DNA of 63,902 bases, taken from the NCBI GenBank assembly GCA_036515135.1, contig DATBVX010000125.1:1-63902 (forward strand), written 5' to 3'. Numbering within the stretch: the stretch's first letter is position 1; every line of letters begins with the position of its first letter. Below are positions 45,321 through 47,786 of this stretch, in pieces. The position numbers and the translations under genes were made by a program. A model generated the notes under the pieces. That model searched no databases, was not told the DNA's origin, and saw only the letters and a program-made list of their open reading frames with translations. The DNA is from Steroidobacteraceae bacterium. Its GTDB lineage: Bacteria > Pseudomonadota > Gammaproteobacteria > Steroidobacterales > Steroidobacteraceae.

Positions 45321-47786
45321 TCAGGGCATTGCATTCAGGTTTCTCTTGACGTTGACCGGGTGACGATGGCGGCCCCATGTCCCCGGCCGCCCTGCGAACA
45401 CTCCGGGCAGGGGCTCGCCGCAATTGACGCACTTTCCCAGCGCATCGAGCCGCCATTCGCCCAGTTCGTACCAATCGCGCTCGATCAGGCACGTGCCGCA
45501 CTTGTGACACCACGTGCTGCCGCCGTCGCGGTCGTGCACGTTGCCCGTGTACACGTATCGCAGGCCGTTACGCAGCGCGATCTCCCGCGCGCGCGTCAGC
45601 GTTGCCGGCGGCGTCGATGGCTTGTCGAGCATTTTCCAGTCTGGATGGAACGCGGTGAAATGTAGCGGGACGTCCGCACCCAGCCGGTCCATGACCCAGC
45701 TCGAGAGTTGATCGAGCTCGCCCTCTGAGTCGTTCTCCCCGGGAATAAGGAGCGTCGTGATCTCGAACCACACGTCGGTCTCGTGCTTCAGGTATTCGAG
45801 CGTCTCGAGCACGGGCTTGAGCTCGCCGCCGCAGATCTTGTAGTAGAAGCGCTCGGTGAAGGCCTTCAGGTCGACGTTCGCGGCATCCATGTAGCGATAG
45901 AACTCGGCGCGCGGCTCGGGACACATGTAGCCCGCGGTGACCGCGACCGATTTCACGCCGACTTCCCGGCAGGCCTGCGCGACGTCGATCGCGTACTCCA
46001 TGAACACGACCGGGTCGTTGTAGGTGAACGCGACGCTTGCGCAATCGAGCGCGCGCGCTGTGCGCGCCAGCTCTTCCGGGCTCGCGCGGTCGGCCAGCGT
46101 ATCCACCTCGCGCGATTTGCTGATGTCCCAGTTCTGGCAGTTTGATACCGCGACAAACGGAACGAGGTAGGAGTGGTCCGGGTCATCGACCTCGAGGTTG
46201 TAAACCGTCCCGGAATACGGGATGCGCTCAATGCAGCGAACGGGAACAAGAAAGTTGTCGCCTGCATCGCGCCGGCTCGTGCGTTCCGACCTAATACGCT
46301 CGAGCGTCTCGAAGCGGTCGCGCTTGAACTTCACGATGTACGTAGTCGACTGCGAAACCACCCGCCCCTCGATCACTTTCGTAGGCGATGGCTGGTGGAC
46401 AAAAAAGGTCGGCAACAGGTCCAGATGGAGACCTAGCTCGTAGATTCCCAAGGCTAGGTCACGCGAGACCGTATTTCCGACCACGTGAGTCTCGGCGACG
46501 TATCCGTCGCCCGCAAGATATCCCTCCAAGAAGGCACGTATCACAGGCTCCGGTGATTGCGTGAGTTGCGCTGGTACGCGCTTGTTCCTGGCACCGCTTC
46601 CACAAAGTGCTTCGAAGAGCCGAGCAACTGAAGTGCTGCTGCAGTCCACCGTGATGGTCGTGCGTCGGCCCGTAATGGCGCTTCGGGCGCCGAGCACATT
46701 CGCAAGTAGTTGCGCCGTCCTGTCCACAAGCTGTTGCTCGTGGTGGCCGCACGCGAAACCAAGATGATAGGAATTCGGCCGACCAGGGTGTGCGGTAACG
46801 AAGCCCTCCGCGCAGTAGAAGCCCAGCAGCCAGGCAAAATCGCGCGTGAATTCGAGGAACTCTGGTAGCCCAGCGCCTCGTTCGCCTAGAAACCTGACGC
46901 GTCCCGCTTCCACCCGCACCCTGACCGCTCGGGGCTCGTCAACTATCAGCGCGCCGCGCGCAAGTTGACCCCGAAGCGCTCGCAGATAGGCGGGGTGGTA
47001 CCCCAGCGCCTCGCCCATTTCCGCGGACGTACCGTTCGCACGCAGCGCCATTACCAAATTTGGCCCGGGTATGCGCCGGAGGCGCGGTGCATGCGCAACG
47101 GGTTCCCGACGCCTCAAAAGCTCCGCGATGTCCAACCGAATGCCGGCACCGGGCCGCCGCTTCGGAATCGAGAGATAATGTTCCGTCGTGAGCTGCTCCG
47201 CCGCGAGCAGTCGCACCTGCCCGGCATTCGAGCGATGTGCAGCGAACACTTTGTGGTTCGGCGTCAGAAGGATCGGTGGGCAGCAGCTTGCCTTGAGCGA
47301 CAGAAGCTCCCCCGAGTATGGGTGCGCGAAGACCTTCGTGACGCGCGCGCGATTCGCCGCTCGTGTCCACACGTCCAGAGATGCCGGGAATGCCACCCAA
47401 CCGTCGTGGTGTGGCGTCTTTTCTTCGCATGCGTCAAACAGATCTGCGATGCGTCGCAACCCTTTGGTTGTGGCAACCGGTGTGTCAGGGTGGAAACAGA
47501 ACTTGCAGGCCAAATTGCAGCCGGCGGTGCCGAACGAGAGCACCGGCGTGCCCGGCAGAAAGTGATTGAGCGGCTTCTTCTCGATCGGGTCGATGCAGAA
47601 GCCGCTCGAGCGCCCGTAGGTGAGCAGTTTGATGCTGCCCTGCTCGTGGCCGCGCACGAAGCACAGGCCGCGCTGTCCCTGACGCAGCTTGCAGGCACGC
47701 GGGCACACGTCGCACTGGATACGCTCGTCATCCACCCAATGCCAATAGCGCGTGTCGACCGTCGAACTTGCCGTTGCCGAATCCAT
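45321..47786 (-). CDS. AmmeMemoRadiSam-system radical SAM enzyme, interrupted by an in-frame intein
   Basis: ATG 47786. N-extein ...IQCDVCPRACKL...FGTAGCNLACKF. C-extein CQNWDISKS...AVTAGYM...CHKCGTCLIERDWYELG...CVNCGEPLPGVF. Joining the exteins restores CNLACKFCQNW. Confidence 0.85.
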   Translation of the reverse strand: MDSATASSTVDTRYWHWVDDERIQCDVCPRACKLRQGQRGLCFVRGHEQGSIKLLTYGRSSGFCIDPIEKKPLNHFLPGTPVLSFGTAGCNLACKFCFHPDTPVATTKGLRRIADLFDACEEKTPHHDGWVAFPASLDVWTRAANRARVTKVFAHPYSGELLSLKASCCPPILLTPNHKVFAAHRSNAGQVRLLAAEQLTTEHYLSIPKRRPGAGIRLDIAELLRRREPVAHAPRLRRIPGPNLVMALRANGTSAEMGEALGYHPAYLRALRGQLARGALIVDEPRAVRVRVEAGRVRFLGERGAGLPEFLEFTRDFAWLLGFYCAEGFVTAHPGRPNSYHLGFACGHHEQQLVDRTAQLLANVLGARSAITGRRTTITVDCSSTSVARLFEALCGSGARNKRVPAQLTQSPEPVIRAFLEGYLAGDGYVAETHVVGNTVSRDLALGIYELGLHLDLLPTFFVHQPSPTKVIEGRVVSQSTTYIVKFKRDRFETLERIRSERTSRRDAGDNFLVPVRCIERIPYSGTVYNLEVDDPDHSYLVPFVAVSNCQNWDISKSREVDTLADRASPEELARTARALDCASVAFTYNDPVVFMEYAIDVAQACREVGVKSVAVTAGYMCPEPRAEFYRYMDAANVDLKAFTERFYYKICGGELKPVLETLEYLKHETDVWFEITTLLIPGENDSEGELDQLSSWVMDRLGADVPLHFTAFHPDWKMLDKPSTPPATLTRAREIALRNGLRYVYTGNVHDRDGGSTWCHKCGTCLIERDWYELGEWRLDALGKCVNCGEPLPGVFAGRPGTWGRHRHPVNVKRNLNAMP
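46140..47498 (-). mobile_element. Intein (453 aa) with LAGLIDADG homing-endonuclease domain
   Basis: Block A CFHPDTPVATTKGLRRIADL. Block B LLLTPNHKVF. LAGLIDADG motifs WLLGFYCAEGFV and FLEGYLAGDGYV. Block F/G VYNLEVDDPDHSYLV...VAVSN followed by +1 Cys. Confidence 0.85.

Follow-up and report, generated by a model that had tools for sequence, protein, structure and literature searches.

A LAGLIDADG intein inside the CX3CX2C motif of an AmmeMemoRadiSam radical SAM enzyme

We analyzed a 63,902-nucleotide stretch of a Steroidobacteraceae assembly (GenBank GCA_036515135.1, contig DATBVX010000125.1, positions 1 to 63,902; hereafter the window). An initial annotation had located a LAGLIDADG intein at 46140-47498, within the CX3CX2C motif of an AmmeMemoRadiSam radical S-adenosylmethionine (SAM) enzyme; profile searches, homology, structure prediction and comparison of relatives agree with this assignment. 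The insert is very probably a class 1 intein that is competent for splicing and contains a homing endonuclease, and the cluster-binding loop of its host would be restored only by its removal. Its sequence is novel, it belongs to an intein family already represented in public data, and it does not depart from known intein biology.

Junctions, domains and fold of the intein

The mechanical open reading frame (ORF; 45321..47849, minus strand) runs uninterrupted for 842 codons from a TTG at 47849. Because the intein-free ortholog P0118 begins with MDPATASFTVDTRYWHW, we take the ATG at 47786 as the likely start, which yields a precursor of 821 amino acids. A 453-residue in-frame insert lies between CNLACKF and CQNW (...GCNLACKF/CFHPDTPVATTKGLRRIADL...VYNLEVDDPDHSYLVPFVAVSN/CQNWDISKS..., slashes marking the junctions; with longer N-side context, ...SFGTAGCNLACKF/CFHPDTPVATTKG...PFVAVSN/CQNWDISKS...). 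Its removal restores CNLACKFCQNW at the exact coordinates and junctions, as the initial annotation had proposed, and the motif CNLACKFC exists only after excision. The C-N-L-x-C-x-F columns of the N-extein are kept in 46-47 of 48 aligned precursors. The intein was also thought to be lower in GC than its exteins, and it is: its GC content is 61.3% versus 65.2% and 64.3% for the two exteins, and its third-codon-position GC (GC3) is 0.68 versus 0.83 and 0.84. The GC3 value lies ∼3 standard deviations below that of 30 coding-like ORFs in the window (0.786 ± 0.031, minimum 0.73).

The spliced extein scores 656.9 bits against TIGR04337 (AmmeMemoRadiSam system radical SAM enzyme; cutoff 220, positions 1-348/349), versus 636.6 bits, split into two stretches, for the unexcised precursor. 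This score, the CX3CX2C motif and the adjoining partner genes for proteins B and A identify the host as a TIGR04337 enzyme. The restored GCNLACKFCQN aligns with GCLMRCLYCHN of pyruvate formate-lyase (PFL) activase (PDB ID 3c8f, motif CLMRCLYC), in which the three motif cysteines ligate a [4Fe-4S] cluster. From this alignment and the ligation by three cysteines, Cys+1 corresponds to the third ligand, as the initial annotation had it, and the intein parts ligand 2 from ligand 3. We reasonably infer that the precursor would be unable to hold the cluster and that none would be assembled before splicing.

We located splicing blocks A, B (Thr-79 to His-82, TPNH), F and G and both LAGLIDADG motifs in the insert (Table 1). 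The profile comparison recommended at the outset places TIGR01445 (intein_Nterm; 28.5 bits, cutoff 24.5, intein residues 1-85) and PF14528 (LAGLIDADG_3; 31.8 bits, cutoff 22.5) above their cutoffs, together with the TIGR04337 host match, whereas PF14890 falls slightly under its cutoff (31.8 versus 35.8 bits). In blocks F and G, Asn-434 occupies the place of the usual Asp, followed by His-442, the penultimate Ser-452 and the terminal Asn-453. Cys1, Thr-10, Gly-13, Thr-79, His-82, His-442 and Asn-453 are invariant in a 48-sequence alignment of the family, and each of the 47 sequences with a residue in the +1 column has Cys+1. Of 35 full-length relatives, 34 retain the putative catalytic residues Glu-231 and Asp-331.

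An AlphaFold2 model of the intein calculated from the 48-sequence alignment has a mean predicted local distance difference test (pLDDT) score of 93 and a predicted template modeling (pTM) score of 0.87. Foldseek comparison of this model with the PDB returned inteins down to E ∼1e-9, namely PI-PkoII (Thermococcus kodakarensis Pol intein 2, PDB ID 2cw7; E = 1.9e-24), TliVMA, PhoVMA, PI-SceI and PI-PfuI, and the free-standing endonuclease I-DmoI matches the endonuclease core. In a sequence search of the PDB, PI-PkoII again ranked first (E = 9.5e-15, with an alignment spanning both LAGLIDADG motifs) and archaeal VMA inteins came next. PI-PkoII resembles our intein in combining a Hint domain with a two-motif LAGLIDADG endonuclease, and the motifs aligned in it and in the archaeal VMA inteins (PDB IDs 7qss, 7qsu, and 7qst) read LLGYYVSEG and FLEGYFIGDG. 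These best sequence and structure matches are nevertheless only ∼15-18% identical in the Foldseek alignments, and they reside in a DNA polymerase and a V-ATPase, unlike the radical SAM host described here. Taken together, Cys1, the block B Thr-x-x-His, the Asn/Cys+1 junction, the Hint fold and an in-frame insertion with insert-free orthologs assign the element to class 1 inteins, although it lacks the penultimate His that is common, but not obligatory, in this class. Both acidic residues and the endonuclease fold identify a two-motif LAGLIDADG endonuclease.

Table 1. Coordinates of the precursor gene, its intein and the partner genes in the window
Feature	Coordinates	Strand	Evidence or remarks
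Precursor gene, AmmeMemoRadiSam radical SAM enzyme split by the intein	45321..47786	-	Likely ATG 47786; TGA 45321-45323
N-extein, 96 amino acids, ends CNLACKF (47499-47519)	47499..47786	-	First two Cys of CX3CX2C; Cys-3 and intein Cys1 form CxxC
Intein, 453 amino acids, Cys1 to Asn453	46140..47498	-	Junctions, profiles, AlphaFold2, Foldseek
N-terminal splicing (Hint) region, intein residues 1-115	47154..47498	-	Block A (Cys1); block B T79-P-N-H82 (47241-47273); TIGR01445
Helical linker, possibly DNA-recognition, residues 116-209	46872..47153	-	pLDDT profile and secondary structure; modeled with the lowest confidence
LAGLIDADG homing endonuclease core, residues 210-372	46383..46871	-	PF14528; PI-PkoII alignment of residues 210-335
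LAGLIDADG motif 1, LLGFYCAEG, residues 224-232	46803-46829	-	Putative catalytic E231
LAGLIDADG motif 2, FLEGYLAGDG, residues 323-332	46503-46532	-	Putative catalytic D331
C-terminal splicing region, residues 398-453	46140..46307	-	Blocks F and G, GTVYNLEVDDPDHSYLVPFVAVSN (46140-46211)
C-extein, 272 amino acids, begins with Cys+1 (46137-46139)	45324..46139	-	Cys+1 is the putative splicing nucleophile and third CX3CX2C cysteine
AmmeMemoRadiSam system protein B (Memo-like)	47831..48637	+	TIGR04336, 247.5 bits, cutoff 26
AmmeMemoRadiSam system protein A (AMMECR1-like)	48630..49184	+	TIGR04335, 173.5 bits, cutoff 99

Full, mini and empty alleles across radical SAM hosts

A search with the intein, clustered at 90% identity, returned at least 117 homologous protein clusters (down to E = 4.6e-180); together with the profile and PDB matches, this is well past what chance could produce. 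A C-junction of the form ...N/CQN, an N-junction of the form CX3CX2/C or both can be read in 113 of 117 clusters, and both in 85. The relatives comprise full-length inteins of ∼416-455 residues, mini-inteins of 168-176 residues that lack the endonuclease, and a few intermediates of 215-246 residues. The linker at residues 116-209 is mostly or wholly missing from the ∼171-residue mini-inteins. The closest full-length relative shares 61% identity over the full intein, and the best matches of partial coverage share 65% and 80%. We also searched with the spliced extein: of the 120 best orthologs (75-91% identity), 111 are intein-free (322-404 residues) and nine contain mini-inteins (538-551 residues). 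The mini-inteins of close orthologs (∼171 residues) occupy the identical site. The ortholog comparison suggested by the initial annotation thus finds a shared insertion point that is mostly empty, and not a collinear ∼450-residue domain devoid of splice junctions, which would have spoken against an intein.

The locus of the intein-free ortholog P0118 (89% amino acid identity), L008, is syntenic, and its genes run in the order pyrF...AMMECR1-Memo-radical SAM-NlpC/P60. Its empty site reads GTGCTCTCGTTCGGCACCGCCGGATGCAATTTGGCCTGCAAATTC/TGTCAGAACTGGGACATCAGC..., and 82 of 90 nucleotides (91%) over the insertion point are identical to the window, versus 84% across the whole extein. The sporadic occurrence of full, mini and empty alleles fits what would be expected of a homing element passing through a homing cycle.

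The same full-length intein occurs on a metagenomic fragment (L089, encoding P0006), where its host is near-identical (96% amino acid identity in the C-extein). Between L089 and the window, the ratio of nonsynonymous to synonymous substitution rates (dN/dS) is 0.16 for the endonuclease region (intein residues ∼139-397, spanning the endonuclease core; dS 0.62), 0.40 for the C-terminal splicing region (dS 0.46) and 0.036 for the C-extein (dS 0.63). The equal dS of endonuclease region and extein indicates an intein older than the divergence of the two hosts, and the dN/dS of 0.16 an endonuclease kept under purifying selection. On the L089 contig (ENA ERZ504957), which carries the closest relative of the intein, the called gene is immediately preceded by an in-frame stop (L089:1-60, TRYE-stop-VTGVQTCALPIF...), which reflects either faulty assembly where the contig ends or a disrupted intein.

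Most discussion of inteins concerns replication and repair proteins, and the initial annotation had regarded host and insertion site as unusual. This was overstated, as the allele is populous and spans several radical SAM families, and the NCBIfam model of the Tes intein aligns at the same site (see below). Our literature search found no description of this allele or of inteins in AmmeMemoRadiSam enzymes. A HMMER search over 1.84 billion representatives yielded 60 clusters at 50% identity (E ≤ 1e-30). A second host family, annotated PflX or "putative PFL activase," has the pattern HFGEEDCLRG..GSGTIFF..CNLRCVFC/intein/CQN[FYH]D.S[QW] and, when compared with TIGR04337, reaches only 27-30 bits; the allele also occurs in a PflX-like host from an archaeon (Nitrososphaeria). 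Hosts among the 60 clusters include B12-binding, HpnJ- or BchE-like radical SAM enzymes, and same-site junctions occur there in many motif variants (CNFDCLF/C, CDYHCGY/C, CTMKCCY/C, CPYRCAF/C, and others). Neither MoaA nor Tes hosts were present among the 150 best representatives, the hosts being AmmeMemoRadiSam, PflX-like and class B radical SAM enzymes. A profile scan of contigs with the intein alignment recovered at least seven loci; patterns derived from the exteins match every radical SAM gene.

Comparing the window with PflX-like hosts, we found inteins 45-52% identical and exteins 26-40% identical (partial local alignments). The intein of P0087, a true TIGR04337 host with the motif CDYHCGYC, is merely 37% identical to that of the window. 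Inteins that are more alike than their hosts across families speak for one or more transfers between radical SAM paralogs, which the conserved motif-coding DNA may well have enabled.

The best NCBIfam local match of the window intein is NF045703 (rSAM_Tes_intein, an "exception" model for the intein-containing tetraether lipid synthase Tes). In each of six relatives the alignment to this model crosses the N-junction collinearly, from the CX3CX2 residues into the intein, and model position 156 falls on the intein Cys1 every time; in the window protein the alignment continues past the C-junction into the extein, and several relatives likewise align across the C-junction. These alignments indicate that the Tes intein is homologous and, judging by the model coordinates, sits at the same radical SAM motif position. 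The Tes host differs, being an archaeal lipid-synthesis radical SAM enzyme, and since the window protein reaches 55.6 bits against a cutoff of 1700, its host is not a Tes and only intein and site are in common. NF038136 (intein-containing Rv2578c-family radical SAM protein) represents a second curated case of an intein in a radical SAM protein; it gave no match to the window intein at the thresholds used, and resembles instead the first intein of P0254, which sits one cysteine further upstream in this motif. The cluster-binding loop of radical SAM enzymes is thus a recurrent intein target, in AmmeMemoRadiSam, PflX-like and B12-binding enzymes and, by model alignment, in Tes.

Some proteins bear two inteins inside the eight-residue motif. 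In P0254 (946 residues) and P0276 they are separated by three extein residues, in the layout GCNWL/C...mini-intein...VVHN/CRY/C...full LAGLIDADG intein...N/CQN, and the first intein of P0254 precedes the second motif Cys. An uncultured archaeon (L004:1507-4782) encodes a Hel308/Ski2-like helicase with a LAGLIDADG intein, a related endonuclease domain and a canonical ...VHN/S junction, from which it appears that the endonuclease module is common to inteins in unrelated hosts.

Gene callers mis-start several intein-bearing genes (P0005, P0003, P0008, P0058, and P0059). The NCBI protein of Methylomarinovum tepidoasis (P0005) begins MACKFC..., i.e. within the motif, and several JGI and NCBI gene calls start within the intein, so that the N-extein is lost from the annotation. 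JGI labels some relatives ".../intein/homing endonuclease." Owing to such mis-started or split calls, radical SAM inventories probably undercount intein-bearing enzymes.

Proposed splicing and homing, and alternative readings

If standard intein chemistry applies, the 821-residue precursor would be translated, Cys1 would undergo an N-S acyl shift, Cys+1 would attack the resulting thioester, cyclization of Asn-453 would release the intein, and an S-N shift would join CNLACKF to CQNW, recreating the cluster-binding loop. Binding of cluster and SAM by the enzyme would be possible only once the protein is spliced. The freed intein or the precursor would act as a site-specific endonuclease that cuts the conserved intein-free allele at the motif-coding DNA, so that the intein is copied in (homing). 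We infer both splicing and DNA cleavage from the anatomy, fold, distribution and conservation described above.

Several observations weigh against such a splicing and homing element. Block F contains Asn in place of the usual Asp throughout the family, and the penultimate position is taken by Ser, Gly, Ala or Lys, and never by His, in 48 of 48 members; the Ser remarked upon in the initial annotation is therefore a trait of the whole family, in which the penultimate His that ends several related inteins of non-radical-SAM hosts (...HN) is missing. Asp in block F and His at the penultimate position are the usual intein residues (PMC4031507), and these atypical positions mean that splicing could be slow or conditional. 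Inteins without the penultimate His can splice, according to Chen, Benner and Perler (2000) as cited in PMC4031507 (ref. 74). The equal dS shows vertical inheritance over the span that separates the window from L089, and current mobility in this lineage is therefore putative. No vector is identified either: among 80 distant intein loci on viral contigs (≤32% identity), none has a CX3CX2/C...N/CxN junction. Our literature search found no experiment on splicing or DNA cleavage for any member of the allele, this protein included.

A rival reading is that splicing is retained and the endonuclease no longer active in homing, the element being fixed in this lineage, inherited only vertically and on its way to becoming a mini-intein. 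The matching dS of intein and extein relative to L089 fits co-inheritance over recent invasion, many relatives of the same clade are already mini-inteins of 168-176 residues without endonuclease, and one of the 35 full-length relatives, P0067 (LYCAKGH, LAGHG), has lost both catalytic acidic residues (to Lys and His). Yet Glu-231 and Asp-331 are intact here as in the other 34, the endonuclease region is under purifying selection, and close relatives offer empty target sites with 91% identical DNA, which leads us to consider loss of homing unlikely. We find it very improbable that the host gene is dead, with splicing lost and the ORF a pseudogene or non-functional fusion. Only the atypical residues of blocks F and G would point that way, against an uninterrupted 842-codon frame with all nucleophiles conserved, an extein that fits its family model over the whole length and shares 89-91% identity with intein-free orthologs, a C-extein dN/dS of 0.036 relative to another intein-bearing host, and intact partner genes. 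We rejected, as next to impossible, a collinear accessory domain: the insert is absent from 111 of the 120 closest orthologs, is bounded by Cys1 and by Asn followed by Cys in every aligned member, and has the fold and profiles of an intein and a LAGLIDADG endonuclease; we found nothing in favor of such a domain.

Compatible with a splicing intein, and adding a function to it, is the idea that the element is a conditional switch gated by redox state or metals, and not merely selfish. Four cysteines (Cys-7, Cys-3, Cys1 and Cys+1) meet at the junction, so that an oxidized Cys-3/Cys1 or Cys1/Cys+1 disulfide would block splicing, as would Zn, Fe or a cluster on the junction thiols, and the oxygen-labile enzyme would be made only in a reducing cell. 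The window precursor has a C(-3)-x-x-C1 arrangement, as does the intein of MoaA, a radical SAM enzyme itself, from Pyrococcus abyssi. The arrangement reads C-K-F/C in the window, and 47 of 48 aligned precursors keep it in the form C-x-[FY]/C. According to two reviews (PMC3922620, PMC10663303), Callahan et al. (2011) found that a native Cys-3/Cys1 disulfide blocks splicing until it is reduced, and the reviews interpret this as protection for an oxygen-labile enzyme. Disulfides between Cys1 and Cys+1 and divalent cations inhibit other inteins (PMC3922620, PMC10663303, PMC4031507). The likeness to P. abyssi MoaA lies in C(-3)-x-x-C1 and in an oxygen-labile host enzyme; the hosts are AmmeMemoRadiSam versus MoaA or MoaA-like, and the organisms a bacterium versus a hyperthermophilic archaeon.

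By this analogy, redox- or metal-gated splicing is plausible, and the retention of unusual assisting residues (block F Asn, non-His penultimate) and the vertical persistence of the allele with a well-conserved splicing core are in line with it. However, kinetics and redox dependence of the family are argued from other inteins, the four-Cys geometry follows automatically from an insertion site that a homing endonuclease would favor for its highly conserved DNA, and any regulatory benefit must be dispensable because most close orthologs are intein-free. We think a switch in this protein improbable. A wider proposal, that inteins at this site form a specialized family adapted to radical SAM enzymes, whose four-Cys junction senses redox state or Fe/Zn and whose Asn and non-His residues are part of the same adaptation, appears to us rather improbable. 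If true, it would confine splicing and maturation of an oxygen-labile [4Fe-4S] enzyme to reducing, cluster-competent conditions and would constitute a widespread post-translational checkpoint over several radical SAM families in bacteria and archaea. The family provides a natural and diverse set of CxxC-junction inteins for work on redox- or metal-conditional splicing in an oxygen-sensitive enzyme class, with which the observation on P. abyssi MoaA could be taken further, into mesophilic bacteria.

Partner genes and other elements of the window

The Memo-like gene is divergent from the radical SAM gene, with 44 base pairs separating the two ATGs, and its end is overlapped by the AMMECR1-like gene by 8 nucleotides. 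The cluster is flanked by pyrF and an NlpC/P60 gene. AmmeMemoRadiSam (Memo-Ammecr1) systems are not known to have been characterized functionally. The literature mentions them only as "Memo-Ammecr1 systems" that have a related radical SAM domain (PMC7159879). In the intein-bearing locus L090:3725-7373 (JGI 3300063079), an AMMECR1 gene and, in the place of the Memo-like gene, a gene with LigB (PF02900) as its only recorded Pfam match come before the radical SAM gene; the three share one strand, as opposed to the divergent layout of the window.

Directly past the radical SAM stop (45237-45315) are two tandem copies of a ∼37-nucleotide element, spaced by 42 nucleotides and 73% alike, each of which holds a perfect or near-perfect 10-base pair hairpin (CCCTCTCCCG/CGGGAGAGGG). 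The element looks like a repetitive extragenic palindromic (REP)-like repeat or a terminator. As the mechanical GTG start of the NlpC/P60 gene (45284) overlaps it, the true start of that gene is probably located further downstream. Elsewhere in the window, a cyclic di-GMP-I riboswitch aptamer (RF01051) is found at 58349-58434 on the minus strand, matching the full-length model with 81 bits versus a gathering threshold of 35.

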